Of a DNA stretch of 58,124 bases, positions 1-22,350 are shown one piece after another. The stretch lies in assembly GCA_000442015.1 (NCBI GenBank), contig KE561324.1:62001-120124 (forward strand). The letters run 5' to 3'. This stretch comes from Rozella allomycis CSF55. Lineage: Eukaryota. Positions within the stretch are counted from its first letter, which is position 1, and every line of letters begins with the position of its first letter. A program made the translations under genes and the position numbers. The notes below the pieces were generated by a model. That model was not told the origin of the DNA, made no database searches, and worked only from the letters and a program-made list of their open reading frames with translations.

Positions 1-253
1 ACAAAAAGGCGTAATATGTAAATAAATATACATTTAATCCGACCCATAAAGAGGCGATTATTGATTTTGGACCTTCATTGATAAACCAAACTTGAACATC
101 ATTTTTGAAAAGCTCGAGGGCCGAAAGCTGCGGTGGTGATATTTCATCAGCATGCAATGGATTTATGTCAAGAGTCTTTGATTTCTCTACAAAACTTTGG
201 CGTCTTTCGTTGCCTATCACTGTTGACGTCAACTCTGACTCTATTGTATCCAT
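1..253 (-). CDS. NADPH oxidase (NOX2/NoxB-like), 5' part only; runs off the window
   Basis: Hand translation from ATG 253 gives ...VQVWFINEGPKSIIASLWVGLNVYLFTYYAFL, matching the NOX N-terminal W..NEG...W.GLN..LF pattern, preceded by a ~50-aa extension. Confidence 0.7.
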   Translation of the reverse strand, partial: MDTIESELTSTVIGNERRQSFVEKSKTLDINPLHADEISPPQLSALELFKNDVQVWFINEGPKSIIASLWVGLNVYLFTYYAFL

Positions 254-525
254 TGTTTACTATTTTGTTTGTCACTTGCCTTAAATAACGATATTCATTT
301 TTACTATTAATTTGTGATTTTGATGTATGACAATTATGACATTATATATAAACTATTAAGTACTAACCCTTGTGCAAAGTGTAGACTTTTTGTGCTTTGG
401 ATTACATTAAAATTTAAAGTTCTTTGTTGCAAATGTGAAGATCTGAATCCTTAAAACCGCGAACCATAGTTGAATTGGGAAATCATAGATAATCTTCTAC
501 TAAGCCCCCACAACTTTCACACTAT

Positions 526-1265
526 ATGATTCTTAATGTCGTCAGTTGGAAGAATTTTTTTAAGTCATCAATTTTATACATATATTATACAATAGCTCTT
601 TCGTTCACAGGTTACATCATCTTGACATTCTTTTCCAAGCCTTGGACATCATGGAAAACAGTCTCTAACTATTCCTTGACATCTCATGGAGCCTCCTTCA
701 TGGCTTTGCACTGGATTGGTGGGTGCGTTCTTAATATATGCATGGTGCTACAGATTCATCCTTACATAAGGACGAAATCGTTAAAGATTCATCGCAATAT
801 TGGAAAAGTTTGTTGTTTTTTTGGTTTAATCACCAGTATTTTCGGCTGTCTATATATTTTCACTGTTGGAACTGTGGGTGGTATCGAAATGGACATTGCA
901 TTTGCGTTGTACGGTTTCCTCTTCTTCTTTTTCACCGTCAAAACATATATGGCTGCCAGAAAACACAAAAGATTTGTGCATGAAATCTGGGCAGTGAGAA
1001 TGTTCGCGATGAGTGTTGGTAGTCCTCTGTATAGGTAAAATTACCCAATTTTAGTAATATCAGACTTTACATCTCACCGTTGTTTATAAAAGCTGTATCA
1101 TCGAAATTAACAAGCGTAGATAAAATTAGATATCTTAATGTTGCTGGATGGCTCATGTTTGTACCTAATTTGATCATTGCCGAGATCTATATCTATCGAC
1201 AGCTGCATAAACGTGATGACCCTAAACCTTCTTCGACATCTGATCAAGCAATCTTGGACGAATAA
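526..1265 (+). CDS. Multi-pass membrane protein, DUF2306-like
   Basis: ORFs 526-1038 and 1080-1265 are joined in frame by a GT-AG intron at 1035-1063 (29 nt). His motifs LHWIGG, IHRNIGK and HEIW..RMFA. Confidence 0.6.
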
Positions 1266-1319
1266 GCTTATAATCTATAAATATAAATCATAAAATATTT
1301 TATTGTTAAAAGTTATCTA

Positions 1320-1760
1320 TCAAACTAAATTTAATGGATTTTCGTGAAAGTGACCAACAGGCTCAACTTTGTATCGTTTCATGTCAATTAATATCAGCAT
1401 TGATATTTTCATTCGTAGTCTACTGAGGAAACTGAAGTTCAGTCTCTGCATTTTAATGGTATCACCAGTTTCTATAATGTCCAGACCGAATTCACGCCCC
1501 AGTGCGAGAACGTCACATACAAAATTGTTTTCCGCATTCAAAAAGTATTCCATTGGTATTTCCCAGGAAGTTATTTGGCTATTAGTTGCAACTTTCCAGA
1601 GGCCCTTGACAAAAGGATAAAAATAAAGTCTCTGGGAGTTTCTCCAAAAAAATAATTCAAGGTATATTTTTTTCTTGCAATTTTCTATTTCGTTTATGAG
1701 AAATTCTGTCCTTTCTTGAGCGACTTGTTGATGAAAGGCTTGGCGGTCATTATTGGCCAT
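1320..1760 (-). CDS. Hypothetical protein, 146 aa
   Basis: Uninterrupted ATG-initiated ORF filling an intergenic space; no family recognised. Confidence 0.5.
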   Translation of the reverse strand: MANNDRQAFHQQVAQERTEFLINEIENCKKKIYLELFFWRNSQRLYFYPFVKGLWKVATNSQITSWEIPMEYFLNAENNFVCDVLALGREFGLDIIETGDTIKMQRLNFSFLSRLRMKISMLILIDMKRYKVEPVGHFHENPLNLV

Positions 1761-4005
1761 GCTAGGGTATTCATTATTTTACCGAGGGATTAAAACAAGT
1801 ATTAAGAATGTTCTTAATAGATTTGAGAATCAGTTTCTATGCCACGTGACCAACATTAGGACCCTTGCCTCAGTTGGAAAAATTATGACGACTAAAGAGG
1901 AACTTTCTAGTGAGATAACAGCTGTCGGCGACAGAATCCGAAATATGAAGCTTGAAAAGGCGAGCAAAGAAGCTCTTCAACCTCATATCGATCAGCTTGT
2001 CACTTTGAAGAAAAAGCTTGACGAAATTATTGTAGCGGAATCAAAGAAAGAGTTTGATAGAACCAAACTTGAAACGGTGTTGAGAAGACGATTTTTTTAT
2101 GCTCCAGCATTTGACATTTATGGTGGTGTGTCTGGTTTGTATGATTATGGTCCTCCTGGATGTGCACTTCAAGCCAACATTCTGCAATTATGGCGTTCCC
2201 ATTTTATTTTGGAAGAGCAAATGCTTGAAGTAGATACAACTATTTTGACGCCATATGATGTGTTGCACACTAGTGGACATGTAGATAGGTTTACTGATTT
2301 AATGGTTAAAGACAAGGGCAATGGTAATTTGTATAGAGCTGATCATTTGCTTGAAAACTGGCTATCAGCTCAAATTAAGGATGTCAAGACTGATGCTAAA
2401 CTTAAAGAAGAATATTCTTATGTTATGACCCAAGTAAGTTTTCATTAAATACATTAAAAGGTGGACAATTATGATGCCAAAGAATTGGGTGATATTTTGA
2501 GAAAATACAACGTAAAGGCGCCTGAAAGTGGCAACGATATTTCTGAGCCTGAGCCATTCAATTTAATGTTCAAGACACAAATTGGACCAGCTGAACATGA
2601 TTCCAAGGGACGTGGGTAAGTATGATAAATGGAATTTATGTAGATTCATGAGACCAGAAACTGCGCAAGGTCAATTTACCAACTTTAAGAAATTGTATGA
2701 ATACAATAATGAAAGAATGCCATTTGCTTCGGCACAGATTGGAAAGAGTTTTAGAAATGAGATTTCTCCACGTGCTGGATTGTTAAGGGTCAGAGAATTT
2801 ACGATGGCTGAAATTGAGCATTATGTGCATCCAAATAAAAAGGATCATCCACGTTTCAGGGAAGTAGAAAATGTGATAATGTCATTTTTACCTGCATCTG
2901 AACAAGAAAAGGGAGTGTCTAGTACGATTGACATGACGATTGGAGAAGCCGTCCGAAGTGGCATGGTCAACAATGAGACCCTTGGATATTTTCTTGCTCG
3001 CATTAGTTTGTTTTTAATAAAGATCGGAATAAAGAAAGAAAGATTGAGATTTAGACAGCATATGAGTAATGAGATGGCGCATTATGCGAGTGATTGTTGG
3101 GATGCTGAAATCCAGTCTTCTTATGGATGGATTGAATGTGTTGGATGTGCTGATAGATCTGCTTATGATTTATCAAATCACACAAAGAGAACTGGCGAAA
3201 GATTAGTTGCGCGTGAAAAGCTTGATACGCCAATCCAAAAGAATGTGATTAAGCCACAATTCAATAAGAAGGAAATTGGTGTTAAATTTAAAAAAGATGC
3301 AAAGGTGATCGTTGATGAAATTGAAAACATGAATGAATGTGAGTTGAAAGAATTGAAGAAGAGTTTGGAAACAAATCAACGTGCCAAGGTAGCTGGATTT
3401 GAAGTCAGCAGTGATATGGTTTCCATTGTAGAAACCGTTGAAACATGTTATGGTAAAAGGCAATGATGGATGAAATGTAGTCGATGAATACATTCCTTCT
3501 GTTATTGAACCATCATTTGGTATTGGAAGAATTATGTATTCTTTATTGGAACATTCTTACTATGTTCGTGAAAATGATGAAAATCGATGCGTAAACTCGC
3601 TTGTTTATTTTAGTGTAGGTTTTGTCTTTCCCACCTGTTGTTGCCCCAGTCAAATGTCTTGTTGTGCCTTTGAGTGGCCATCCGTCATTTCCTCCATTTA
3701 TTTATGAATTGTGCCAACTTTTGAGATCCAAAGATATTTCTTTTCAAAAAGATGATTCTAGCAGCTCTGTTGGAAAACGTTACGCTAGAAATGATGAGAT
3801 TGGTATTCCATTTGGCATCACAGTTGACTTTCAAACCGTCAAGGATAAAACTGTCACTTTAAGAGAAAGAGATTCAATGTCTCAAGTTCGCATTCATATG
3901 GATCAAGTAGCAAACATCGTTGCTTCACTCGCAAACGCTACTCTCTCTTGGAACAAAGTCACTGAAACATTTCCTGCTTTTGTTGAACAAGAAATTGATA
4001 ATTAA
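1759..4005 (+). CDS. GRS1: Glycyl-tRNA synthetase (alpha2 type) with WHEP-like domain; cytosolic start probably ATG 1885, upstream in-frame ATG 1759
   Basis: Motifs [31 protein letters not shown] and [10 protein letters not shown]. Introns at 2434-2460, 2616-2643, 3453-3480 and 3591-3618. Confidence 0.95.
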
Positions 4006-4093
4006 AGCATTAAATAAACATTAATATTAAAACTAATTATGTTATACTTACACTAATTATTACATTCATTCTTTTAATTTATTATTCTAACAA

Positions 4094-5269
4094 TTAATGG
4101 CTAAAACATTCAGTAAACAACACAACTAGAAACACAAGAAAAAATATCAACAGAAATGCTACTAGATACACATATTGAAGGGGGACAACATAGTTAAGTA
4201 CTACGCTGGATACCGCCAAGTAGATCAACACAAACCACTTGATATTCTTTCTTCTCAACACTCCATACAAATTAGACAATGATGGCACAAATTCAGCTGG
4301 GGCTACATCAGGCATTGGAACTGCAGTTTGGTCAGATGGGTATAACGTAAATAAAACATAATCATTCTCTTCCACAGACATTTGTTTAAAATACTCTCTA
4401 ATTGACGATTTCATTAAAAAATCATCATCGGTTGCGAAATATTCAAGATCAAAAGTCAATGGCTCTGGATCATTCTTAACCTTGACTGGCTTGGTTGATA
4501 TTTCATCGCTATAATATGGATTCGGTCTAATGTCAATCATAGACACTGCATGGACTTTGAGGAGCGATTGTCTTTCTTCCGTAAAATTACACTGTTTTTC
4601 AATAGATCGCGATCTTGTATGTCTCTTTTCCTTTCTCATTGTCCGTGCAGGGAACAAGTCAGAGAGAGCTGAATCCTTGCTGGATTTCAGCGTGGTTCGT
4701 GACACATCTAGAAGACTCTCCCAATCTCCCGATGAAAATCTCTTGCTTTTACATTTCACTTGATTTTCTGTTCTCACACTCGACTGTATAATTTCACCCA
4801 CACTGTCATTGTACTGCATGTTCCATGCTTGTTTTGCAAGATCAGATGGTATCTTATAGTAATGCACATCCCCAACAACAGTCATGTTATTCAATGGATT
4901 CCTTGCCTTCATGCGATGCAACAATCCTTCTTCAGGCTGCGTTCGAAATAAAACCTTATTTATGTGATGGGCCTGATAGATGGAATAGAACAACTTGCCC
5001 GATTCGTCTTGCGTAGTCACCCGCGCTAGAATGAAATCCTTGTTTGCTTTAATAGCCATCTGGAACAAACTCGTAAACGTCTCAAACGTAAATATATCTT
5101 CAATAGACCCATCAACACTCTCAACCACATCTCTCGTCCCTTCAACATCCGGTGTTTTCATCAATCGAAACTTCACAGGAACAGAGCTGGGTAGCTCCTT
5201 TATCCATGGCTCAGTATCTTTTGATCTAGTTTCAATAATCTTCTCATTCGTTGGTATCGGCATATACAT
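4094..5269 (-). CDS. Uncharacterised protein with two C-terminal TM helices (DUF5092-like)
   Basis: 391-aa intronless ORF. DFILARVTT...Y.AHHINKVLFR...KARNPLNN is recalled as the DUF5092 family of microsporidia and early fungi (not verified). Confidence 0.55.
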   Translation of the reverse strand: MYMPIPTNEKIIETRSKDTEPWIKELPSSVPVKFRLMKTPDVEGTRDVVESVDGSIEDIFTFETFTSLFQMAIKANKDFILARVTTQDESGKLFYSIYQAHHINKVLFRTQPEEGLLHRMKARNPLNNMTVVGDVHYYKIPSDLAKQAWNMQYNDSVGEIIQSSVRTENQVKCKSKRFSSGDWESLLDVSRTTLKSSKDSALSDLFPARTMRKEKRHTRSRSIEKQCNFTEERQSLLKVHAVSMIDIRPNPYYSDEISTKPVKVKNDPEPLTFDLEYFATDDDFLMKSSIREYFKQMSVEENDYVLFTLYPSDQTAVPMPDVAPAEFVPSLSNLYGVLRRKNIKWFVLIYLAVSSVVLNYVVPLQYVYLVAFLLIFFLVFLVVLFTECFSH

Positions 5270-5393
5270 GCGGCGCAGTTTGTTGTGGATTTCTGAGATT
5301 CATATATTGATTAATTTAGGCATAAAAATCTATTTAAATACTATCGTGGCTAATTTTAGCAGTTTTATTTATTTTAAATATAGAACCTATCAT

Positions 5394-6552
5394 CTATGTC
5401 AACGATGCCAGAGATCTCTTAAAAGATGATCTCTTTGTATTCAGCCATTTATACACATAAAAATCAGATAATTCTACGCCTTTTCTATCACGGATAATGT
5501 CATTAAACGCTTCGGGATTTTGGCAATACCCATGGTGTCCCTTGCCAGGAATGACAAAAAAATTAGCGTCTATCTTGTGTTGATGCATCGATTCTCGGAG
5601 TTCATTAGAGACATAATTCAAGTCAATCCAATCACGCTCTCCGCAAATTATGTCGACTTTCATAGGAAGCTGGTGACTGTGATTCAGCAGTTTAGTAACA
5701 GGTGAATGCCATCTTATCCCCCTTGTCATTTCAATGAGATTCATAAAAGCACTACCCCCTGAATTTGGCAAACAGTTTGATGATGCTAGGTAATCAGCAA
5801 ACAAGTCTTCTCTAAAAGGATAGTATTTCCCTATGTTTGGCTGCATCAATCTAATAAGGCTTTTATAAAAGAAAAAAGGCGTATTAAATTGATTTTGATT
5901 CATTATTCTAATGATGAGTTTTAGAGCCATGTCACTCATTAATGATGCTTCCTGTGGGTAGGTTAAATTCCTGAAACCAATAATCTAAAATAAATGAAAT
6001 TACCAACTGGTGAAGCTAATATTAATCTGTTTATATGTGATGATCCATTTTGTAATGCATATTGAGATGCGAAATAACTTCCTAAACTATGCCCAACTAG
6101 TGAAAAGTCTTGTAAACATAGACTTGCTCTCCATTTCTCAAAAACAGAATTGTAGAAATTTATAATTCGACCATGATCCATCCCGCTAAAATCCAGTCTA
6201 CTGCTGAGACCCCACCCAATCATGTCAATACAGTACACATCAGAAAAACCTATTCAACAAATATATTATCTTTACTTTGAGCATGCAATATTGTGTTTGT
6301 CCAATTTGCTATTCCTGATCCATATCCATGAAGCATTACTAAAGGAGGTGCCCGCGGATTATTTGATTTTACCAACAAAGTATTCACATATATATCTTGA
6401 TCATCAATATTAATCTTAATCCAAAATTTCTGTCGACGGGGAAAGTAACTTAAGATTTGGTTCTCGATCATCAATGCTTTCATAAATATATTGTATTTCA
6501 CATTTGGGCCTAAATCATGGCACCTGACATAATTAAGTCGTGATAAAGTCAT
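5394..6552 (-). CDS. Alpha/beta hydrolase, ABHD4/5 (ICT1/CLD1)-like lipase/acyltransferase; start uncertain
   Basis: Motifs LVMLHGYGSG, IDMIGWGLSSR, GHSLG, GERDWI and GHH. One 26-nt GT-AG intron plus an inferred GT-TG intron at 5978-6003. Confidence 0.8.
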
Positions 6553-6635
6553 AACATGTATCCAGGATATACATTAACAAGACAAAATAATTTCATAAAT
6601 AATGATAAGGAGCTGAAAAATACACATTCTAGGAT

Positions 6636-6885
6636 TTATTTTTTTCCTGATTTTTTGATACCTCCACTTAGTAAAGGACCTCCTTTTGATGCCTTTTCTT
6701 TCAATTGTTTTAAGGCGGCTTCTTGTTCTTTCTTCTTCTTCATAAACTCTAAATCGTCCTACATTTAAGAATAAACTAGATTTTACTTCATCAAGGTCTC
6801 TTTGATCTTTTTTTGGTTTCTTTAAAGGCTTTAGCTTTCCACCTTATCTTTTCTTAGAAAAAATGTTACCTTGACGAGAAGACAT
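6636..6885 (-). CDS. TMA7: Translation machinery-associated protein 7
   Basis: After removing two introns (27 and 28 nt): MSSRQGGKLKPLKKPKK...KGGPLLSGGIKKSGKK*. Not in the ORF track. Confidence 0.92.
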
Positions 6886-6997
6886 TTTTTTCTGAAATTT
6901 CTTTTTAACAGATTTCTATTTTTAAGTTTACTTGAAAGTTATTGGTGCAAATCATGGTCTAAAACTCATTACCCCTTTCGGAGACACAAAATTTCCG

Positions 6998-7363
6998 ATG
7001 AAATACTCTTTTCTCATATTTACGTTGTTAATAATTGCCCTTAAAGCCCAAGACATCGTCGATTCTTCAGGCAATGTTGCAACAGCAGCCGCTACTAACT
7101 TTGATCCTGAAATACCTGGAAACGAAGACCTGTCAAATTTTGATATTCCAGTGGTTACTTTAGATGGGGAAGTCTTAAAAGAATATGAAAGGAAATTTGA
7201 GTTGGCACAAAAGGCGGCACAGTTACAAGTTAATAATACCAATTCTAATTCGACTTCAAATAATCAATCGAAAAATTCAAATTCAGGCGGGCCAAGAATC
7301 ATTTCCATCGATACTTTACTTTTAATACTCGGTGTTCCAGCATTCTTCTTATTGCCATTATAA
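6998..7363 (+). CDS. Small secreted, probably GPI-anchored or membrane-tethered protein
   Basis: Signal peptide MKYSFLIFTLLIIALKA, an N/S-rich spacer and a hydrophobic C-terminal tail. Confidence 0.6.
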   Translation: MKYSFLIFTLLIIALKAQDIVDSSGNVATAAATNFDPEIPGNEDLSNFDIPVVTLDGEVLKEYERKFELAQKAAQLQVNNTNSNSTSNNQSKNSNSGGPRIISIDTLLLILGVPAFFLLPL

Positions 7364-7567
7364 TATAATTAATGCTGAATAAAAATTTTTGCGCATTCAA
7401 CATTCAATAACGAATTTAACTAAATTTCTTTCACTCTCCTGTGAATTTGTTCTTAAAGACTTGTCGCTTGGCTATGAAAAGCTCTACATCTTTTCAATTA
7501 TTAATTATTAAATAATTTATTGGTTTTTGGATTCAACCATTTGTCTTCGTAAATTTCAAATATCTTT

Positions 7568-8067
7568 ATGCGCAATTTAATTCTCCTCTCACGTAAATCA
7601 ATCATTGATGCACAATTAGATTTCCGTTTTACAGTTATTAATAAGAATTCTTTTCGAAATATAAAAACATTGGGTAAAATATAACCACTTCTTATAAATT
7701 AGCGAATGAGAGTAATTTAATATTTAAAATAATATATGCTTCGTCTCGTACACATGGTTCGTATCACTGGTTGGCTGAAAGAGGGTTAAGCTTGGCCCTA
7801 TTAATTGGTTTACCTGTAGGTTTGTATACGCCCAACGTGTACACAGACTTATTGCTGGCATTTACTATTCCCGTCCATCTTCATATGGGTTTAGGGCAAG
7901 TGATTATTGATTATCTACCATCAAGAAAAATGCCGTTGATAAATAAAGCAGCACGAGGCACCTTATATGGCTCAACTGCGCTTCTATTATATGTTCTTTT
8001 AAGTTGGAATGAATATGATATTGGGGTTGGTGAAGGTATCAAGCGTATTTGGAGTGGTAAGAAATAA
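7568..8067 (+). CDS. SDH4: Succinate dehydrogenase membrane anchor (CybS/SDH4/TIM18 family)
   Basis: Motifs HGSYHWLAER and HLHMGLGQVIIDYLP. Intron 7674-7702, probable in-frame intron 7593-7619, possible GT-TG intron 7712-7738. Confidence 0.85.
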
Positions 8068-8105
8068 AATGTGTTCAAATGGTGGTTTATTTTTTTGATT
8101 TCTTT

Positions 8106-10941
8106 TCAAGCAACGTGACTTTTTCCAATGGCTCCTTTTTCGGATCTATGTACCGTCTTATCTTTTCCTGGGTGAATTTTGTTTTTTACTCCTAGGCGTT
8201 TAGCAGCCTTTACTCCAACAATAAAGCCAATAAACAAGCATATTCCAATAAAGAAGTAGCATACCCAAAGAAGGTTCATTGTTTGACTAGACAAAGAAAT
8301 CAAAAGTAATTACGCCCAGTTTACAGACAGATAGTTAAGAATTTCAACAACCACATTTGCTATACCCTTGCATTCTCCTGCATGATTTAAAATAGATATC
8401 ATTTGGTCATATAAGTTAGCAACTGAATTCTTAACGCTTAATATAACAGCATTTTTGGCAGCTACTAATGTCACATTAAGCGCAGGAGACACTTATTGTG
8501 TATATATTGCAAATGTTACCTGCGCTTACAGTTGAATTAATAGAATTCAATATCGGCAAGGTATTATTAATGAAGTTAACCAGATCCGAGAGTCTTGTAG
8601 TTATGTTTGAAACATTAGAATCAACATTGTTCAAAGTATGATTGAGTAAAACCAAGTCCGTTTGTATTGTTCCAATGTTGTTTTTCGCTGCAGGTAAAAC
8701 AATAGATGCAGAATAGTTCACCCGAATCAAGCCATAAGCTGCGTAGAAAGTAACATTAAGAGCATTATTATTGGCATCACTGGAACTTCCGGTAATTTGA
8801 GAAGCCTAACAAATCAACTGCAATATTTTACGTCAAATGTACTTCCTCCATTAATATATGTGTTAACAATATAAGTTTCCGTGAATGGAACAAAGGAGCC
8901 ATTAACACTTTGAGCAAGAGTATTAAAGCTTGTGAGATTAGATGTTATTTGAGTGGGGTCCCAACCAGATATCAAAGTTGATAATGTCAAGTTATTGGAA
9001 ACACCTGTCAATGTATCTATAGTACTCTGAATGTCGATCGGCAAAGAAACGTTGACTGAGAAGGAGCTAATCGCACTTAAATTGACATCTTATCTCAAAT
9101 AAAACATTAATTTACTAGAAATTGAGTTTAATTCTGAGAGATCTGGTAAAGTGAAACTTACAGCATTATCCACGTTAATATTTGCAAATTGGCTGTCCAA
9201 GTTTAAAAATTCAATGAATGTTTCTCCTTTTGTCTTATTTAATTGATCGATAAAAAAGTTCTGTAGACCCAAATATGCAACAAGAGTGGTTCCATTGGAT
9301 ATTACAGACGCGTTAAAGATAGATTTGCCTGACAAACAAGAGTTTAACAAAGTAGCTGGACTTATGTTCATTTGACTTGCCGGTGTCGCATTGAATAGAT
9401 TCAAATTCGGAGCTGGTCCAAGACTATATTCCTTGGTTAAAATTGATGTTCTGTTTATAGCGATTGCGTTAAACACAAAAGCCATCAAGAAGAATAAGAT
9501 AAAACATAGCCAAATGCAAAAAGAAGAGATAATCGTAATAGGTTTCATAATTTCAGCAATAACTCCTTTTTGAAACAAAACAGCTAAGGTGCCAAACGCA
9601 AAACCTAAAAACACTAAGCCTACTAAGGCAATAAATCCGATGTCCCTTTCTTTGATTGTTTTGTATCTTACCTATATGTATCATAAGGCAGAACCAAATT
9701 ATTAATCATATCCAGAGCTAACGTTTTGTAGGTTGCTATTTGAGATGTTACGGGACTAGTGGCAGTGCGCAACTGATTTCCCAATCCACTAGTCATTGAA
9801 GACAGGCCTCCACCACTACTTATAGTGTCTGTGAGATTTCTAATCGTACTGTTGAGCATAGATGGCAAACTGCTTATTGTTCCCTCATATGTATTATTCA
9901 GGGTAGTTGTTAAATTGTTAATATTTGGCAAATTGTTGATAGGAGAAGATATCGCTGAAAAGTCAACAATTGCCGAAACGTTCGGTAAAGTAAAAGCAGA
10001 TATAGTTGGTACCCCAGATACGTTATAAGTTTGGGTATCTATTGTTATCGCACGTAGATTATCAAGTAGAGTAGTGATATCCCCAGTTATATTGGTTATG
10101 TTATTTAAGGTATTAGATAAATTTTGAATTGACATTTCAATAGTATTGATTTGACTTGTAATGTTTGAGACTCTGATGTTCATATTTCCTAATACGCCGA
10201 ATATGTTGTTGACGGTGGGCCCAAGATTCTGTCGAATAATTACGCCGAAATCAGTTGCCAAAACGGCATCTGCAAGACCCGAAATTCCAGTGTTTATAAC
10301 GCTTCCTAATTGGTCAGCTGATGTGACTAAACCGTCTGTAACTGAATTAATTTGATTTGTAGTGTCTTGAATTATCAATGAAGCGTCGCTCAAATTTGTA
10401 GTGAATTGCTTGCTGCCAATCAAAATGAAAGAGCCAAAGAAACTAATAATCTTATTAATAAAATATTACAAGACAACTCCAGACAGAATCAAAAGTAATA
10501 TACTCACTGATGCAACTTGATATGTTGTGTAACCACCCTTCCTTGGTTTCCTTCCTCCACAAGAGTTGCAACAACAACGGCAACAGCAAAACAATAGGCC
10601 AATTATGGGCATCATAATCATCATAATTACACCAAAAGCAAACAAAATTCCAAAACCCTAAACTACATCGATATGTGCTGCGTTACCAAGAAGTTTTTGG
10701 TGGCAAACGATATTGGGTCAGCAGTAATGATGGACATTATAGTTGTAATATCTTCAATACCCATTCCCGGTGCCAACAAAGACTGAATTTGCTGCCCGAA
10801 ATTGCTTAAAAAGGAACCCGCCGTGACCACAACATTAGAGTCGATCTTGGATTGTAAAAGTTGAGGTAGATTTGCGGAAACTGCGCATGAGAACAATATG
10901 ACTATTGTGAATGCAAATTTCCCATAGTCCTCGACGATCAT
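8106..10941 (-). CDS. Prominin-like 5-TM glycoprotein
   Basis: Seven introns of 26-29 nt join a signal peptide, TM1 followed by MPIIGLLFCCCRCCCNSCGG, two large N-glycosylatable loops, and a final N..W...VK.AK TM segment. Confidence 0.7.
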
Positions 10942-11185
10942 AATAACTCAATTCCTTGGTTACGTTCGGCTAATAAATGCTTGGATGTTAAATCAGTTTT
11001 AACAGATCCAGTTTCATAAATCACTCATTTTACAGTTTTTAAGCTTTGAAAGCACTAAATTAATCTAACACTGGCGATAATTATGAATAAAGGACAACTT
11101 AAACAATCTATGGACTGGAATCAGAATGAAAAATATCAACGTAAAATATTTAAAGTTAAATATGAAAACTAATGATTTGGTTTTA

Positions 11186-11593
11186 TTAAAATTTAATGGC
11201 TTCACCCTGAAATAAATAAATGGAGAATTTAGTACCTTAACTTTCTTCTCTCCACCAAGTTCAAAGTGTTTGCATCTCTTTAAAGCGATTTGATGCTTAT
11301 GTTTGCAGGAAGTACATTCTAAACGTAAAACAACTTTCTTGGTAGTTTTAGCCTAAATATTTTTAAACAAGCAAATCTACTTTTTTGTGAAACACGGGTT
11401 TTGTTTGACCACCATAACCAGCTTGTTTTCTGTCGTAACGACGTTTTCCCTGTGCGAAAAGAGAAGCCTTACCGGTCTTGTACTGGGTGACCTTGTGGAG
11501 AGTGTGCTTGCGGCATTTTGTTCCTTTGCAAAAGGTGTTGCGAGATTTTGGAACGTTCACCTAAACATATAGATAACTAGTATTTGGTACCAT
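11186..11593 (-). CDS. RPL44: 60S ribosomal protein eL42 (L44/L36a)
   Basis: [14 protein letters not shown]...[25 protein letters not shown]. Introns at 11561-11590, 11353-11380 and 11207-11235. Confidence 0.97.
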
Positions 11594-11810
11594 TTACGAT
11601 TTTTGGGTTAACCAGGGTGAAAAAAACCTAATATGAAATTTCGCAAAAAGTAGTATAAAAAATTCTACTGATCCTGATATTCCATTGTGAATTTTAATAA
11701 ATTATTTATCCATTTTTTATTGACGCGTTCATTAAAACGATTCTGAAGGTCAATTCTTTGGATCATAAAATTCGGATTTCCGTTGAGACCCCTGCAAAAA
11801 ATTTTTCAAA

Positions 11811-12294
11811 ATGGGTCGTATGCACAGCAAAGGGTAATAGAGAAAAAGTCATTTTAGTTAGAAAAGGTATCTCTGATTCAGCTTTACCATATCGTCGTAC
11901 TCCACCATCATGGTTGAAGACTACTCCTGAAGAAGTCTGTGAACTTATCTGCAAATACGCCAAGAAAGGTTTAACTCCATCTCAAATCGGTGTTCTCTTG
12001 CGTGATCAACATGGAATCGCTCAAACTAGATTCGTTACCGGAAACAAAGTCCTTCGTATCTTGAAAGCCAACGGTCTCGCACCAGAAATTCCTGAAGATC
12101 TTTACCAACTTATCAAGAAAGCTGTTGCTGTCCGTAAGCATTTGGAACGTTTTCGCAAGGACAAAGATTCTAAATTTCGTCTCATTTTGATCGAATCTAG
12201 AATCCACAGACTTGCTCGTTACTACAAGACCACTGGTCAATTGGCTCCAAACTTTAAGTACGAGTCTGCCACTGCGTCCACTCTTGTAGCTTAA
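11811..12294 (+). CDS. RPS13: 40S ribosomal protein uS15 (S13)
   Basis: [18 protein letters not shown]...[16 protein letters not shown], with one 28-nt intron. Confidence 0.97.
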
Positions 12295-12325
12295 ATTAAT
12301 AAACTCGAGAGACGAAAAGGGCATC

Positions 12326-13938
12326 TCATTTAAAAAATTTATTCTTTGCTTTTTTTATATATTTTAAACTAGTTATCATCAAAGGAGTTATTATTGGTAG
12401 GAAAAGGGGAAGGTATATTGCCATTTTGTGATCATCAGGGTAGTACATCATTGCCACCATCGAGGGATCAGAAAGAGCCATTCTGGATTCCAAGTAAGCT
12501 CTTCTTGAGTCTTTGTATGATGATTCCCACTTATTTGATTGCATATGTGCCAAAGCCTAATGGTCATAACTGCATTTGAATTACCCTTTTCAATCTAAAA
12601 ATTGATGATTGAATGACGAATCCAACCTGATCAGGAACAATAATATTACTTATTTTATTTAGCATTCTCTTAAAAGCGCCAAATGTTTCTAAAGTCCCTA
12701 TCACAGACTTTATGATGGATTCCTGCATGAAAAGGTCAACTTGAAGGGCAGAGAGGAGTTGGTCATTAGAATCTATTACATGGCCTAATTCAAAATTGAA
12801 TCCAAAAAGGGATAAGATTTGTTTTGAAAATAGTTTCATAATCGGTCTTAATTGCATTTCACTGATGGTGCTTTGTTCAAAAGATTGAAACACGATACCT
12901 CCCCATTGGGGATAAATAAACGATCTGAATTCTTTTTCTGTCTATATTACAAAAAAATTTTACCTTCTTCGTCTAACACTATAATATTGGACCGCTTTGG
13001 AACAAATAGGATCAAATATATATTTTGCTCAGAAGAAGTAGTAGACTCTGCTTTAATTAATCTTTTTAAATTACCTAAATTCCATGATGCTGAATTGAGC
13101 ACACGAGACAGATCATTTTGAGGTAACATATAGTGAGTTCCATTGGACTTTGGCTCAACTGCCAGTTTAGTATCAAATAGAATCTAGTCTAATTTTTAAC
13201 CAGTATATTTTACGTGTGATTCGATTTTAAAATCAACTAGCTCTGATAATTGATTGATAAATGGTCTAAGGTACTCTACTACCGGTCAAATACATATTTT
13301 ACTTTCAATAGCTAATGAAATCTCCCAATCTATTGCAGGTGAAGATTTCATGTCTTCAATTTGTAATGTAAACACCAAACGATAAGATTTCTTTATGTTG
13401 ATCGCTTTGTTCCCCTAAAATGATATTGATAATCATGTACTATTGTATTTGTTGCTGTAACAATTGATTCAAGTCTTTGTTCAATTGATTTTAAAAATCC
13501 AGCATCACATTTACTACTAGTTCGGTACAAAAAGACTCTGCTATTAGATTCAACAAATTTGTCTCCACTTCCTTCATTAGTTTCACAATCAAGCTTTATC
13601 AGATATCTTCCTGGACGAAGCTCTTTGGAAAACTTTTCCATTACTGAATTAAATTTTTTGTCGTTGCATTTGAAGTATTCATAATTGAATCGGCGGATAA
13701 CTGTATTATTGTTTAAAAATTGCATTGAACTGCGACTTGAATTAAAGATATTATCATTTGAGGAATTTATGCAAGTCATAAAATCAAATTGTAAATTTGT
13801 AGTGGGGTTAGCGATATCATCCAAAATCGATAGTTCCGCTCTATAAACTGATGTCATTATCCACCATATAGGTAAACCAATGGCAAAAAAGAACCAAAAC
13901 GACAATAAAATGTACCCCTTTTCTGAGAACGAATTCAT
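12326..13938 (-). CDS. GPI17: GPI transamidase subunit PIG-S/GPI17
   Basis: Motifs GLPIWWIMTSVYRAEL, F.YPQWGGI and DPSMVAMMYYPDDHKMAIYLPLFLP; about 6 short introns. Confidence 0.88.
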
Positions 13939-13971
13939 GGACTGAAAATTGAAAATTAGAAAACTGTAAAC

Positions 13972-14182
13972 ATGGTTGAGAAATAGTTTCCAACAGTAAC
14001 ATAATTATAAATCATAAAAAAGTAATATATCATCATCATGCTATCAATGTCTTCCTGGCAACAAAGATGCCTNTATGGTTGAGAAATAGTTTCCAACAGT
14101 AACATAATTATAAAATCATAAAAAAGTAATATTAATATATCATCATCATGCTATCAATGTCTTCCTGGCAACAAAGATGCCT
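13972..14182. repeat. ~100-nt near-perfect tandem duplication flanking a single N (probable scaffold-join artefact)
   Basis: 13972-14072 is repeated at 14075-14182 with small indels; the N lies at 14073. Confidence 0.85.
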
Positions 14183-14754
14183 TCTGCCAAGTTACAAAAC
14201 AATTCAAAATCATTTGCTTCAAAGTCGCAAGCTTCTAAATCTTTTCCAAGGCTTGGCTCATCAAAGCCATTCATGGAAGACGAAGAGGTTGTACCAGAAC
14301 ATGAGCCTGTTCATGTAACAGAGAAAGAAATTAAACTGGCATTCCAATGGCTTTCTAAAGATGGAAAAAGAATAACCAAAGATGATATAAAATCCAAATT
14401 GACAGAGATAGTGCCACAATTAAGTCTCAGAGATTACAAGTTGTTTGTTGGCAAAGAAAATGAGACAATGAGTTTAAAAGAAATTAACAGTCTGTTACTT
14501 AACCGAGATTTATATGAATTTAAACCAATTGAGGAAGCATTTCATGTAATTAGATTAGCAAAGTTATTAGATAGTTCTTTCCAAAGGATACTGATGGTAG
14601 TATAGATAATAGCTTTATAAAGAGACTATGTGTGTTGATGAATGACGATGGTTATATTAGAAAAAACGATTACAAAAATTTGATGGAGAAATTTGATACA
14701 GACAAGGATGGCAAGATTAGTATGAAAGATTTTGAACAAATCTTAAAAGAATAA
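14177..14754 (+). CDS. EF-hand calcium-binding protein
   Basis: One 29-nt intron; C-terminal FDTDKDGKISMKDF is a canonical EF-hand. Confidence 0.75.
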
Positions 14755-14795
14755 ACATTTTAATATCTTAAATATCTTTAAAATAAAAAGTTTTA

Positions 14796-17700
14796 TTATC
14801 TTAAATAAATTCTTGACAAATCTGACCAATTATTTTGATATCCTTCATCAAATTCAACGAACGCAATGTCACCAGTTATGGAGACCAGCCCATATGCTTT
14901 ATTCTTTACGCTCCCATCAAAAGAATTTTGATTCATTCTGAAAGACAAGAGTGCGTTACCTCCAAATGCTGAAACATGCGATCTTATCATTGCATGAATT
15001 TCCAACATCATGTTGTGTACAAAAGTTCCAGTTCCAGTCTCAACAAAATTGTCTTCTTTAACAAAATGAAGGGATAGATGCCCGATGTAATTAATTGTTT
15101 TCATATCCGGAAGAAATGACAATGGTGAAATTTCAACATTTGCGAAGCTTGAATTGTTCTGTATTGCACTCGTTTGATCGTTTTCAATTGAAGCGCTGTA
15201 AACAGAGTTTTCATCAACCAAATCTTCATCATATTCTTTTTCGTTATTCTCTGAAGTTGAATGGGATTCTTTTGGGTTAGATTCTGGTTGTTGCTGTTCC
15301 AGAGCTTTGGTTATCATTTCATCAATAGAATCTGTTCTAGCCATTTGACCAACAGAGAAAGGCACAGTAGAGAACGAAAGTGTGTTGACGCGGGGTATTA
15401 TTTGAGAAACTGATTTTTCAATATCTTCAGTCTTATCCAACACACCCATAACGTAGGCTGACAATCTAATAAAAATGATGTCTTCAGTAGGATGATGAAC
15501 GTCTAGATTTAAACTTGAAATTAAACTAGATTTAAAATGAAATGTATTGAACATTAATTCAAGAAACAAATCATTAAAAACCATCGTAATTTTTGAGTTT
15601 GGTTCTCTTTGGAAATCCTCAACTTCAACTTGTTTGACCATTGTGAAAAATTGGGTATGCACCTTGTTGAAACATGAATACAGTCTGGGCATGCTTTCAA
15701 CATTACAAATAAGACAATCCGGTAAGTATTCTGTTAACAACAAACAATGAAGAATATCTCTATCTGAATGATCATCAATTTGAATCACAACTGTATCCTT
15801 TAACGTTGTTTCGTCCTCTGAAAATAAAGAACTCGTGTCTGGCTCACTATCACTTGAATCTTCATGATCCATTGAATTAGATTTGCCAAGAAATGTCAGT
15901 TTGTCTAAACCTTCCTTTCGGGCTTCACAATTCTTTGTTGACTTTTCTGTCACTAATTGCACCAATTCATCCAGAGACGAATCCATAATATTTGAAGATA
16001 TACTTAATGGTGTTGGTAGTGGTAATGCTAACAGATATAATGCTGTGCCAGTGGCGCCTAAATTTTATACCCTGGTCATTTTTACTGACTGAAATGGCTG
16101 TTTCACCAATGCTCACTTGAAATCTCAGGCCAAAGATTGAATTATATCCCAAAAGCTTCAGTTTGTAAACTAATTGTCTGTGCATATCATATTCTAAAAA
16201 TGGAATGACATCACCAACATTGGCCGCATTTAGTTCCCCTTCTTGATGTTTTTTTAAACGAAATACATGAGACGATATCAATTGTCCACTTCCATCAACC
16301 ATTAGGTCTTCTGGGGGTTCAATAGTAGTTAATAATATTTCAGGAACATGATGACGACCACACACTTGGCACAGGGAAAAATTCATTGGGAATGGAGTTT
16401 GTTTTCTAGTGTACGGGATATGAGTCATAAAACAGCCTGTTATGAGCAAACATTGCAAGCTTACCTGTTGTAGCCTTTTTCTTTCTTCTTTTCATATTTG
16501 GTGAAAATAGAGTTTCTTTGATATCCAAAGACTTTGTGAACTGTGATAAATCTAATATGGCAGCTGTTCCAACTGCAGAAAAAACACAAAGATCATTTTC
16601 AATTGTTGTCTTTTCTGAATATCCAATCACATGTGGACAGCCAAGTGCCCTAGCGTGAGATTTTATTTCATCTCTCAATTCAGTCCACCATGTGTCTCTA
16701 ATGTCACTGTCGCCCCCTTGAAGTATTTTTATTGATTTCGCGGAAACGACACCACCAATTTTAAGAATCGCTCCAACAGGAAATGATTTTATTGTCAAAA
16801 AGAGTAACTCTGGAACTTTGACAACTCTTGATTCACTTGAAGATTCAGAATTGACTTGATTTTCGTTTGTGGGAAAATCGTGAGTTGCATCATCATTAGT
16901 GAATGGGGAGTCTGGATCCACAAAACTAGGCTGCAGTTTGGGTGAGCTTGGAATGTCAACGTGGATAAACCTTGGAGTTGAAATCACTGAATTGCTACGT
17001 TGTCTCACACTCTCAGGTGTAATAATTTTGCAAGCAGTGCCAATAGCTTTCATATGTTAATAAACTATAATTTACCTCTTGCTGTTATGTATCTATCTTC
17101 ATTTTCAATATCAAACGATGGTGTGTAACCAATCACTGCATTCCCACCCATTTCAACAACCTTCTTCGCAACTTCATTTCTTAAATATCCAGACAATCGG
17201 AAAAGCAACTTTTGTCGAGCTTCATTTGAAAACCGCGGTGTTCTAAAATTATCACTCCAGTGACTCTTTTCAGGATCGTCTTCACTTGTTATAACGTCTA
17301 CCAGACCAATAATTGAGCCAGCCTAATCCTTAAACATCATTAAAGTTACTTTATCAAACGGAAGGGATGAACACGCAAAAAATTGAACACCGAGTGCACT
17401 TTCTTTAAATGGATTCACGTCACCAAAGTATTGCCATCGGATTAAAATATTCAATTCCCCTCTTATTCCCTTTAAAGTATCATGAATCGGAAACCAGCCT
17501 GTTATTTGTTGATTTTCTGCCAACATTGGATTCAAGTCTATATTTACCAACCCAACAATATCTGTCATAAAAACTCAAATAATATACCATTGGCCGAATA
17601 TGCGTCATAATCTAAAACTCTCAATTCCAAATGCTCCTTTTGAAGTTCATCATCGTTTGATATTTCAAATCGAAAATCTTCATTCCAAACCTTTCCTTGA

Positions 17701-17893
17701 CTTTTAAAATTATTACTGGACTAAGAGTTTTCTTACAAACTTGCGTTCTCAACGGCTCATAGTCTGCAAATCTAATTTCTACAAAAGCGTCGGTTAATTC
17801 CGATGTCCTGTCCATTACAGGTAAATCCCTCGCTCCTATTACTCTAACCTCGTGTATTCACTTATTTTTTGTTACTTTAAGAATACATGGCAT
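14796..17893 (-). CDS. C2CD5: C2 domain-containing protein 5 homolog
   Basis: Spliced N-terminus MPCILKVRVIGARDLPVMDRTSELTDAFVEIRF; RDTWWTELRDEIKSHARALGC; 7 introns of 26-29 nt. Confidence 0.88.
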
Positions 17894-17913
17894 TGGAATT
17901 GGAAATTTTGGAA

Positions 17914-18603
17914 ATGAAGCGCGACACAGAATTTGAATTTGAGCTTCCTAAAAGGACTAAAAAGACCGATGAAAGTGACGACGAAGATTTAGATTTAGAT
18001 ATTCTTGGAGGAAGAGGTCAGAGGCACGGTGCAGTCACCAACGCGTATTCCGATGAAGAGGACGACGACGAAGAAGAAAAGGAAAGCAAGACAGTTGAAG
18101 AACATAAATTTTCAATTCACAGAGAATACGAAGAATCCAAAGGCGTTGATGAATATGACGAAAATGGGACAAAGATTGACGCGTTTAATTTGGACGAGGA
18201 GATGGAACAAGGATATTTTGATGACGCTGGAATGTACGTGGAAAAGAAAGATCAGAATAAAGATAAAGATAATTGGCTGCAAGGAATTACTAGGGAAGAT
18301 ATTCAAAAGGCCAAACTCGCTAAAGAAAAGAGAGAAAAAAAGAATAAAGAAACTGAAGCTCCCAAAATTTCGATTGAAGAACTTTATAAAAAATTGTTCG
18401 AACTTGTTGAACCAGGTCAAAGTATACCCAAGGTATAGAGATAAAAGAATTGTCAAATGTAGGCAATGAAAGAATTTAAAAAGAAAAAGAAAAAAGAAAA
18501 ACTGGATTTAATGACTGACATATGTTCTCAATTTATAGACAAAGGAATTTACTCTATTTACGAAGAGACATATGAAAGTTTAGAAGAGAAAGTGAATTCC
18601 TAA
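17914..18603 (+). CDS. LIN1: LIN1/CD2BP2 (U5-52K) homolog lacking the C-terminal GYF domain
   Basis: Motifs IDAFNLDEEMEQGYFDDAGMYV, KDNWLQGI and GIYSIYEETYE; one 30-nt intron. Alternative start at 17887. Confidence 0.75.
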
Positions 18604-18624
18604 ATTTCATAAATTATTTCAAAC

Positions 18625-18813
18625 ATGAATGACGAATTTTTACAGTTTAATCCTTCTTATGTATACTTATTTTCAATCGCACAGTTAAAACATCCGAATA
18701 AAGTGAGGCTTGAGCACTTTAAGAAAACAAAGCCCACCAAAACTCATTTTGAAAGTGATCACGATCGAAACCGAACCAACGAAACCAACTATGATACTGT
18801 AGATGAAAATTGA
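18625..18813 (+). CDS. Small hypothetical protein
   Basis: 62-codon ORF with a possible in-frame 24-nt intron at 18661-18684; AATAAA follows the stop. Confidence 0.4.
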   Translation: MNDEFLQFNPSYVYLFSIAQLKHPNKVRLEHFKKTKPTKTHFESDHDRNRTNETNYDTVDEN

Positions 18814-18888
18814 ATAAATTTTTAAGTAATGAATGGTGTGCTTTTACTGTCATTTTTAATCTTTCCTTGTTAAAATAGTGGCTTATAT

Positions 18889-19959
18889 ATGGACACCAAA
18901 ATTTTAGAATTTCCTCCAGTAAAACGAAAGACTGGAGGAAAGCATTCATATCTATACGAAGAAATAGACTTTTTTGAAAATCTCAATATTAAAAGGGCAG
19001 TAAAATCTCTAAAAGAGGGTTCTGTGGTTGCCATTCCCACCGAGACGGTTTACGGTCTCGCTGCAGATGCATTTCAACCCGAAGCAGTCAAGAAGATTTT
19101 TCAAGTGAAAAACAGACCCCAAGACAACCCATTAATTGTTCATATATCTTCATTCGAGATGCTTGAAACTTTAATAGCGAAACCATTACTAGAAAAAGAC
19201 AGAAATATTCTGGAGCATTTTTGGCCGGGTCCATTGACTGTACTGTTTGAAAAGAGTCAAAATGTTGATGATATTGTGACATGTGGCCAATCACGAGTTG
19301 CTGTTAGAATGCCATCACATCCCATCGCTCGAAGTTTAATTTCTCAGCTTGGCTCACCATTAGCGGCACCATCAGCCAACTTGAGTGGAAGACCAAGCCC
19401 AACTACAGCAGCACATGTATTGAAGGATTTAAATGGAAGGATTGAGTATATTTTAGATGGAGGCAGTTGTCTTTCTGGATTGGAATCCACAGTTTTAGAT
19501 ATTGATAGTGAGACTATTTTGAGGCCTGGTGGAATTACGTTGGAAGATTTAAAAGAGGTGCTACCGAATGTAAAAGTTTATGTTAAAGGGACGGATGAAA
19601 ATATGGAAAATCGGCCTGCTACTCCAGGGATGAAATATAGACATTATGCACCAAATGCAAAAGTATTAATTTTTGAAAACAAAAGAGATTTAATTGAGCA
19701 CGCTGTGACATTGAAGAATGAAGATGGTGGAGTGAGAATTGGTTTGATGTATTCTGATGAAGATTTGTTGGCGAAGAGGGAGTTGTGGCATGAGATTCAT
19801 TATCTGGGAAAGACTGTAGATGATGTTGCATTTAACTTGTTTGATGGGTTAAGAAGTTTGGATTCATTTGAATCGGATGTAATTTTGGTGGTTAAAGTTC
19901 CGGCGATTGGGACTGGATTAGCGGTGATGAATCGTTTAGAAAAAGCAGCAAGTTCTTGA
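18889..19959 (+). CDS. SUA5: Threonylcarbamoyl-AMP synthase
   Basis: Motifs PTETVYGLAA, KNRPQDNPLIVH, APSANLSGRPSPT and PGMKYRHYAP. Confidence 0.96.
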   Translation: MDTKILEFPPVKRKTGGKHSYLYEEIDFFENLNIKRAVKSLKEGSVVAIPTETVYGLAADAFQPEAVKKIFQVKNRPQDNPLIVHISSFEMLETLIAKPLLEKDRNILEHFWPGPLTVLFEKSQNVDDIVTCGQSRVAVRMPSHPIARSLISQLGSPLAAPSANLSGRPSPTTAAHVLKDLNGRIEYILDGGSCLSGLESTVLDIDSETILRPGGITLEDLKEVLPNVKVYVKGTDENMENRPATPGMKYRHYAPNAKVLIFENKRDLIEHAVTLKNEDGGVRIGLMYSDEDLLAKRELWHEIHYLGKTVDDVAFNLFDGLRSLDSFESDVILVVKVPAIGTGLAVMNRLEKAASS

Positions 19960-19998
19960 ATCTAAATAAAACGATTAAATAAAGGCTTAAATTTGAAT

Positions 19999-22350
19999 TT
20001 ATTTTTCTTCTTGTTTTTCTTCATCGTCACTCTCAGGAAAAACTTCGCCGTATTCTTTTAATTTTGATTTGTAAAATTTCACTTCTTGTTCTTGTTCACC
20101 AACGCAGGCTAAAAGATCGTTGAATTGTTCCTTTTCGTTTAAAAGTTCTGTTTCTTTAGTCTTTAATTGAACTAGAAGCTTTTCAACATTTTCTGAAAGG
20201 CTTTTTATTGTATTTTCAAGCTCTTCAATCTTTTTGGTGAATTGAACTTCTTTTTCTTGTTTTTCTGATTCTAATTTTTCAATTTTAAGTTTTAATGATT
20301 GAATTTCTTTATCTTGATTAGATTGTGGCTTGGAACTCTTCTTTTTAGAAAAAGCGTCATGGACGACAATTGAAGCTCGTTTAAAAAAATCTACAAATGA
20401 ATTATCAAAATAAATTTCTGAATTTTCAGGCATTTCCAAAGTTTTCGATACTTGAAAGAATGGGCTGTCTGAAATCCTTTTAAGTCTTGAAAAGAACAAA
20501 TCTAGTCCAATCCTTGTGGTAACAATTGGCAGCAAGTCACTCTTTTTTATTTTAGAGTCATCTGTGAACTCATATGAAATTCCTAACAACAAGGCAGCTA
20601 AACCCTGCACAATATTGTCAACCCCTGTAGATTGACTAATCAACTCGATAAAGAATTGAAGTCTATAAGATTCATTAAACACCAAAGAAATTGATTTTGG
20701 AGATTCAAATGCTAAATAGCAGAGTAGTTCCAAGTAAGCAATCGGAATTCTTTGATTAACGTTATTTTCTCTTGATGAGGCTATTAATTGTTCTGTTATA
20801 CTCTCAATTAATGAAATTTCTGTCTTTTCTCCATATTTAACTCTTTAACTTCAAACTCCAGTCTTACCTGTTGGAATCATAAATTCTGGTGCATAACTCT
20901 TGTGTTCTTCGTTAAACAAAGATCTAATAAAGAAAGACGAGAATAAAACTCTGTAAGAATCTTTTCTAGAATTTTGCCAATCGAGCAAAGTATGAAGAAT
21001 CAGATTTGGCAAAGTCTCTTGATTATCAAGATTCTTTAGCTGTTCAAATAAAGCGCCCGACAATTTATTATTTCTGCACATTAAACACAAAATTAAAAAC
21101 ATATATGATAACTTACTTCTATTAAGTAAACTGAAGCTAAACGAATTGGTAGATGATCAACCCTGGTATACAAGTTGCGACCAAAAAACAACAATGCAGA
21201 CTCATTCTCAGTGTTTAAATTAAAAATATATTCTTGATTTTTTTCAAAACCACGAATCATATCGGCTACAGTGTAAATGGCACTGGTTTTGACAGACTCA
21301 TCAAAGTCAGTTTGGCTCAAAAGAAAATGTGTAATTTTAAATAATGCCTGACTAGAATAGAGACAATTCTACTTAAATTCAAGAGTTTAAAAATACTTGA
21401 TTGAGATTGGTAGATTGTGAATCTGGAAATACCAAAATTCTAATCAGTTGGAGCGCCTTTTTAAAATTGTTAATCATCTGTCTAGTCTTTTTTTCTTCCG
21501 TTTCTAGATTGTCAAACAAATGCACCAGTTTATTGATACAAGCAGTTTCTCTAAAATAATTCTGTAACATGCGATTAACTATTTTACTTGATTTGATACA
21601 TTATAATGAAGAAGATTAATCATCAATTGCAAACAATCTTGAACTACTATATCCCCCTTCAGTGACCCTTGCTCAAAAATAATCTCAAGACATCGTTCAA
21701 ATGTATTTTCAAACGCAATAATTTTCTGTATCTCGGCATTAGACTCCGTCAATGAGATTAATAAAAGAATTCCCTCTGTTCAAGAACCATATTTAAACCA
21801 TACCATTCCTCAACACTTCATTCTCCGCATCAAGCAAATCAACTAGCTTTGAAACACCCATAGGCGCAATAATTAATCCTTCTTGCAACTCTTCCGGTTT
21901 TTGCTTTAACAGCAACGACATGAATTGTATGGTATCATACCGCACATGAAAATCAGCAGCATCCAGCATATTAACAATCAAGCTAACATTACTAGCATCC
22001 TATCACACACAAATAACTATTTTTACCTTTACTACCATCTCTGAAAACTGAAGGCCTTGGTCAGTATCCGAACAAACATAGTTTAATGCTTCTATTACAG
22101 CCTTGGACATGTCCAAATCTTCCATATCGCTTGACTGCAGTGCTTTAATAAATAAATCTAATCCTTTGGTTCCTACAAGTAATGGGTAATCCTTGGAAAG
22201 CCCTTTCAATGCCTTTAATGCACCTCTGCGATCATCAAGAAGGGTAGCATGTCGAAATCGATCACAGAGTTTGTCAATAGTAATATCTACAGAGGGTTGT
22301 TCTGCTTTATCGCCTAAAAGTGCGTTGTAACTGTTTGCCAGAAAATTCAT
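19999..22350 (-). CDS. USO1: Vesicle tethering factor USO1/p115
   Basis: Motifs ATLLDDRR, DFHVRYDTIQ, IQKIIAFEN and IVQGLAALLLGI; short coiled coil; 6 introns, including GT-TG at 21088-21116. Confidence 0.9.

Follow-up and report, generated by a model that had tools for sequence, protein, structure and literature searches.

A predicted GT-TG mini-intron in a lipase gene of Rozella allomycis and a candidate class of introns with non-AG acceptors

Can TG be the only productive 3' end of an intron? The question is raised by a lipase gene of three exons and two introns (about 6552-5394, minus strand) in a 58,124-nt stretch of contig KE561324.1, here called the window, of the fungus-like parasite Rozella allomycis CSF55. 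The minus strand from 6003 to 5978, GTAATTTCATTTATTTTAGATTATTG, contains 4 G+C out of 26, starts with GTA and has no AG acceptor, its end being TG. Its removal yields the peptide LILASPVGF and leaves the frame open for 368 aa, counted from ATG 6552; on direct reading, sequence and frame were both as described in the initial annotation, which had proposed a GT-TG intron at this place. From the DNA we consider it likely that this predicted second intron (5978-6003) is a U2-type mini-intron and that TG is its only productive 3' end.

The gene itself appeared intact. Exon 1 (6276-6552), for which the start is uncertain between ATG 6552 and ATG 6483, carries the HGYG oxyanion motif and is followed by intron 1 (6250-6275), a canonical 26-nt intron of the form GTA...A23...TAG that provides a control within the same gene. 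Exon 2 (6004-6249) contains the GHSLG nucleophile motif, with the Ser codon at 6088-6086, and ends in LILASPV-G. Exon 3 (5394-5977) contributes the Asp of GERD (codon 5633-5631) and GHH (His codons 5537-5532) and closes with the stop codon at 5396-5394. A GXSXG nucleophile, an Asp and a His were thus all found, in a gene that is single copy in the genome (11.86 Mb, 1059 contigs) and whose product matches Pfam Abhydrolase_1. On a profile of the 98 nearest full-length matches, taken from the best 150 of 1025 matches and kept if 250 to 480 aa long, the product of TG splicing scored 238 bits.

We provisionally take the family to be the ABHD4/ABHD5/Cld1/Ict1 group, with which the lipase shares the Abhydrolase_1 match, HGYG, GHSLG, L-x-L-x-S-P-x-G, GERD and GH. 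It differs from the group in two positions. ABHD5 has Asn in place of the nucleophile Ser, and the presence of this Ser in the lipase argues against ABHD5 identity. The motif of the acyltransferase-type ABHD4/ABHD5 is HX4D, and the lipase, with Gln at its Asp position (motif at 5537-5520, minus strand), does not fit the acyltransferase type. Among the 63 homologs with the motif, this position is occupied by Asp in 27, Glu in 21 and Gln in 4. From its motifs and from a profile of unnamed matches the product looks like an ABHD4-like serine hydrolase. Exon 2 was present in none of 69 longer candidate public proteins, a search that yielded no full-length public protein for the gene, and the sole match of exon 3 among public proteins was a 116-aa downstream fragment. 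In metagenomes, 138 pattern matches included two distant, bacterial-level ones that were not useful as an orthologous locus.

The unspliced frame runs into a stop after 14 further codons, and some intron is therefore obligatory after exon 2. Counted from ATG 6483, TG splicing gives 345 aa, the AG at +19 gives 168 aa, retention 164 aa and the AG at +33 153 aa, and the last three products all lack the catalytic Asp and His. The AG at +19 (5985-5986, minus strand) lies upstream of the putative branch A and shifts the frame from donor 6003, the AG at +33 (5971-5972, minus strand) is followed by a stop two codons on, and the first in-frame AG is found at +56 (5948-5949, minus strand), 30 nt beyond the TG, with the loss of ten residues including a conserved Gly. 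For donor 6003 these earlier statements on the AGs were therefore borne out. What had been missed are two in-frame canonical introns on the same strand: a 23-nt one at 6007-5985, which is AT-rich, uses the +19 AG as acceptor and gives the product PIIGF, and a 26-nt one at 5977-5952, with a GTT donor, A23, a CAG end and 11 G+C out of 26, which we judged to be exon. The ends of intron 2 share the 5-nt direct repeat TTGGT, and the junction can slide from -3 to +2 with no change to the mRNA. Of these registers, GT-TG alone has GT at its start.

Several other explanations of the unusual end were examined and set aside. U12-type introns have an RTATCCTT donor and an extended branch motif, and the donor GTAATTTC does not fit RTATCCTT. 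An RNA structure hiding the AGs is not indicated by the fold of 6030-5940, which was no better than that of shuffled sequences (z -0.29). A human-type TG-AG tandem does not apply, both near AGs giving stops. One RNA run compared with window positions 1-20000 at 80% likeness returned 28 short pieces, 21 of them less than 90% alike and none with a joint, and was uninformative either way.

The weight of each candidate end depends on what is usual in this genome. Introns were called with a self-written gene finder whose coding model came from 170 long ORFs; its length prior was flat from 15 to 80 nt, and it had no donor model. A first, AG-only pass with flat priors over 679 kb yielded 1063 introns flanked by exons of at least 46 nt, of which 692 were 26 to 32 nt long and 654 of these 692 began with GTA. 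The combined sets cover about 880 kb of the 11.86 Mb and contain 1553 introns with flanking exons of at least 60 nt (introns next to shorter exons were dropped uncounted), 1386 of them canonical. Among the canonical donors GTA accounted for 1336 and GTT for 20, and the donor GTAAT of intron 2 fits this consensus; GTTG was seen in none of the 1065 introns of a second pass with trained priors. At every intron length from 26 to 30 nt an A at position 23 from the 5' end was prominent, and 297 of the 346 canonical introns of 26 nt carried it (about 880 kb). The A at 5981 (minus strand) occupies this position in intron 2 and is its putative branch point.

In the second pass, 1057 of the 1065 introns used the first AG that ends at position 26 or beyond. 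AGs ending at 15 to 25 were bypassed in 434/1386 canonical introns, in 53 of them at exactly 19. Such routine skipping means that the +19 AG of intron 2 carries no information, and the earlier statement that TG is chosen over AGs on both sides was overstated: the +19 AG merely comes too early, and only TG at 26 versus AG at 33 is a true contest. By eye, a small upstream gene (about 6870-6844, minus strand) offers an unremarkable case of this behavior: its apparent 27-nt intron, ending in AAG, skips two earlier AGs. As for the lengths among the 1553 introns, one was of 23 nt, 22 were shorter than 26 nt, six were canonical 33-nt introns and 14 were of 50 to 60 nt. A G+C content of 11 out of 26 was reached by 3/268 of the 26-nt introns.

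For non-AG ends, one equal penalty was applied to all 15 dinucleotides, which were allowed only at 26 to 32 nt, and as a null the true AG of canonical introns was forbidden and the finder left to pick another end. In the first set 34 of 68 non-AG picks ended in G (TG 18, CG 9, GG 7) versus 161/1031 in the null (P=3e-10), and a held-out 200 kb replicated the excess (11/28, P=0.003). Over both sets (about 880 kb), BG ends (TG, CG or GG) made up 45 of 96 non-AG picks against 16% in the null. No excess was found for AA, AC and AT ends (15/96 versus 249/1031 in the null), nor for CA and TT. The 51 non-G picks of the 96 are probably noise; taking them as such gives about 9 chance BG picks and leaves about 36 BG introns in 1553. 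About 2% of Rozella introns thus look like real BG introns, as judged from DNA data alone by a finder trained on the same genome, and since non-AG ends were permitted at 26 to 32 only, BG intron length is partly built in.

In 32 of the 36 BG introns the end used was the first G from position 26 onward. Considering GTA introns with a BG at 26 to 32 ahead of the first AG, AG was called in 41/41 cases when it lay at 28 to 30; 28 of these calls sit at 29, mostly in frame and favored by the penalty, but those at 28 were forced by frame. Where the first AG came at 36 or beyond, 30/46 calls were BG; where it came at 33, they were split (two BG, one AG, three other). The sequence data therefore support a rule in which the range of lengths comes first, AG is preferred inside it and the first G serves as fallback. 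The earlier proposal that length overrides acceptor sequence holds only for the fallback, when the first AG comes late, and not as a general rule. Independently of the finder, an out-of-frame G was depleted in the acceptor range of canonical introns of the first set (7/159 versus 12%, P=0.001), and this depletion was not replicated in the held-out set (7/53, P=0.84).

Another BG intron of the window, in the delta-COP gene (33660-33635, minus strand), is 26 nt long and of the form GTA...ATG, with the first AG at +47; aligned with yeast delta-COP, the flanking exons meet without a gap, one ending at residue 72 and the other beginning at 73. On the sequence, it is a cleaner example of the class than intron 2 of the lipase, for which the junction borders a variable region and two canonical rivals exist. 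The lipase intron, which had been presented as the clearest case, is on its own one more BG instance and not the strongest proof.

With this background the possible cuts of the lipase transcript could be compared. The TG form, the 23-nt form and the rival 26-nt form stand about equal before genome statistics are considered. The finder that allows non-AG ends chose 6003-5978 unaided. Intrinsic weights (scores plus acceptor prior) among seven cuts were 0.94 for the TG form, 0.0009 for the rival 26-nt form and 0.0002 for the 23-nt form, values that are model-dependent and too sharp. On the homolog profile the TG form scored 238.6 bits, the 23-nt form 231.5, the rival 26-nt form 228.4, and the remaining forms, including the 56-nt one, 221.8 and 219.1. 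Compared pairwise with each of the 98 homologs, the TG form was better than the rival 26-nt form in 77, with 12 worse and 9 ties, and better than the remaining two forms in 88 and 92. A Gly two residues past the Pro column is present in 92/98 homologs and P-x-x-G in one, with a mild bias toward P-x-G matches, as the search query itself held the Gly; the residues just past this Gly are poorly conserved in the family. By the finder and by homolog fit, the GT-TG intron is thus the best-supported productive form.

The alternative that survives best, although we hold it to be improbable, is that base 5979, read as T, reflects an assembly error, a heterozygous allele or a recent gene-breaking mutation, and that the working intron ends in AG. 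One substitution would turn TATTG into a perfect 26-nt acceptor, the lipase may be dispensable, and the assembly is imperfect, with a likely 11-nt micro-inversion in Prp18 and a duplicated stretch with N in Prp8. Base errors, however, should strike position -1 as often as -2, and the ends with A at -2 gave the counts below the null reported above while the BG ends did not. Micro-inversion in a hairpin could explain only 2 of the 36 BG introns, the lipase intron not among them; as an origin of its TG it was rejected, the mechanism being unable to produce it. The delta-COP intron, moreover, shows the same pattern. These counterpoints bear on the BG class and not on base 5979 itself.

Considerably less probable is that the real intron is the canonical one at 5977-5952 and that 6003-5978 is coding, giving PVGNFIYFRLL. 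This intron has canonical ends, the modal length and A23, lies in frame and keeps P-x-G, and its product is the better one in the 12 pairwise comparisons mentioned. Its GTT donor and its G+C content, on the other hand, are both rare (20/1386 and 3/268, see above), it is 16 bits worse intrinsically even before the acceptor prior and 10 bits worse on the profile, and its use would require that a strong GTAAT donor lying 26 nt upstream be passed over. Its product would place Asn after the Gly, found in none of the 92 homologs with this Gly; of the seven residues that follow, six would be hydrophobic, against four at most in those homologs.

Slightly less credible still is the use of the 56-nt AG, or of an in-frame end at +29 or +32, in a protein that tolerates the deletion. 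The 56-nt form would combine the GTA donor with a canonical AG, and the CA at +32 scores only 3.7 bits below the TG form on the profile. Against these stand the scarcity of 50-60 nt introns (14/1553), the AGs at +33 and +52 that would have to be skipped, the loss of the conserved Gly at a cost of about 17 bits, and CA and TT ends that show no excess over the null. The least credible of all, the canonical 23-nt intron at 6007-5985, was the choice of the AG-only flat-prior finder and is in frame and AT-rich, but it would need a GTTG donor (0/1065) and a length seen once in 1553 introns (22/1553 below 26 nt), and its P-x-x-G product fits worse than that of the TG form in 96/98 homologs.

Returning to the GT-TG intron, the +33 AG remains its real competitor: canonical 33-nt introns exist (6/1553) and the calls at 33 are split, so this AG may take much of the flux. 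The intact single-copy gene implies only that enough splicing passes through the TG at 26.

A mechanism that would account for these observations is one in which intron definition in Rozella proceeds from the 5' end, with a GTA donor, then a branch A at a distance of about 23 nt and a short acceptor range behind it. Within 26 to about 32 nt the first AG would be taken; with no AG in this range, the first G would be accepted, because the second-step pair G(-1):G(+1) is kept and only the pair of A(-2) with the branch A is lost. According to bioRxiv 2025.06.16.659908, recognition of the 3' site involves pairing of G(-1) with G(+1) and of A(-2) with the branch A, together with Prp8 Q1594 at -3. 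In intron 2, with A23 as the presumed branch point, the +19 AG would lie upstream of the branch A and be unusable. The +33 AG, at the edge of the acceptor range, would give a stop, and its mRNA would probably be cleared by NMD; UPF2 is present in the genome, so NMD could remove this remainder. Splicing at the TG at +26 would give the full enzyme.

The major spliceosome is present in the genome, with U2, U6 carrying ACAGAGA, Prp8, Prp18, Slu7 and Fyv6, and the Prp8 alpha-finger has Gln at the position of yeast 1594. Loss of Prp18, Slu7, Fyv6 or Prp8 Q1594 as the cause of BG use was therefore rejected. Elsewhere in the Prp8 gene a stretch of about 50 nt is present twice with N between (L129:1365-1475), likely an assembly artefact. 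The conserved loop of Prp18 (L101:1561-1752, plus strand) differs from the yeast loop by a one-residue insertion and by substitutions, which are also found in the named R. allomycis protein P0152; of the only two comparators, yeast and the solved homolog 9if7, the latter matches Rozella in loop length. The Prp18 exon is 97% identical to P0152. Two residues differ from P0152 at L101:1633-1643 (plus strand), where the reverse complement of an 11-nt stretch with GCG/CGC arms restores the P0152 reading, and a micro-inversion probably separates the two records.

In PMC10711555, Prp18 is likened to a ruler that sets the minimum distance from branch to intron end, and yeast with mutations in its loop makes greater use of sites deviating at -2 and -1. 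One may speculate that the divergent Rozella loop, remodelled for a branch-to-end distance of 3 nt, relaxes position -2; as a cause of BG use we treat it as a lead only. The complete picture, namely a wild-type spliceosome that measures from the 5' end and routinely ligates at the first G in range, about 2% of introns with BG as sole efficient acceptor, a remodelled Prp18 loop as the cause and TG at +26 beating the YAG at +33 in vivo, is put forward tentatively, as somewhat short of probable.

Related behavior is known from other systems. In the accessible sections of Szafranski et al. 2007 (PMC2374985), human TG 3' splice sites are reported for 36 genes, as alternatives to an AG and never as sole acceptor. 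These human U2-type sites resemble intron 2 in their GT-TG ends and in an AG a short distance off; they are alternatives only, whereas the Rozella TG is apparently the only productive end and belongs to a class of about 2% of introns. That human TG was never the sole acceptor counts against the sole-TG reading of intron 2. S. cerevisiae without Prp18 or with Prp8 Q1594A is similar in that G(-1) is kept, position -2 is relaxed and sites near the branch are used. The available parts of the sources (PMC10711555; bioRxiv 2025.06.16.659908) describe BG there as giving minor products, at least 7 nt from the branch, in contrast to Rozella, which keeps Prp18 and the Q1594 equivalent and has a putative distance of 3 nt.

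Myxobolid myxozoans and Dicyema japonicum have comparably short introns, with medians of about 22 to 27 nt, GTa donors and AG acceptors, and a weak A stretch that lies farther from the AG the longer the intron is, a 5'-anchored A like that of Rozella (PMC13644364). The difference is that non-AG acceptors do not appear in the available text of that study. Nor are they mentioned in the accessible portions of PMC13393502 and PMC8476143, and a literature search that covered few subscription papers returned no paper on non-AG acceptors in Rozella. TG is known in human as an alternative to AG, and BG from yeast mutants; the TG of intron 2 is probably a sole acceptor, going by its sequence context.

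If this is true, about one intron in 50 is removed by a natural spliceosome with a non-AG end as its sole productive acceptor, and the two contacts of the 3' site are separated in a wild-type cell, with G-1 essential and A-2 dispensable. It would further show a fidelity cost of shrinking introns to 26 nt, and AG-only gene models of an early-diverging fungal lineage would be wrong at a predictable share of genes. Intron 2 makes a useful test substrate because six outcomes (ends at +19, +26, +33 and +56 and the two canonical rivals) give distinct mRNAs, and a canonical 26-nt control intron lies in the same gene.

Further non-AG predictions were noted in and near the window. A 29-nt intron of the form GTA...TTG was predicted at 21116-21088 (minus strand), with the first AG at +43, in a gene that we presume to be USO1/p115-like. 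The 26-nt GTC...CTG intron predicted at 54317-54292 (minus strand) is probably noise, as the finder seems to fuse two genes there. Finally, on the same contig as the window, one gene in L004 (minus strand) contains two predicted 26-nt GTA...TG introns, at about 5155-5130 and 4844-4819.
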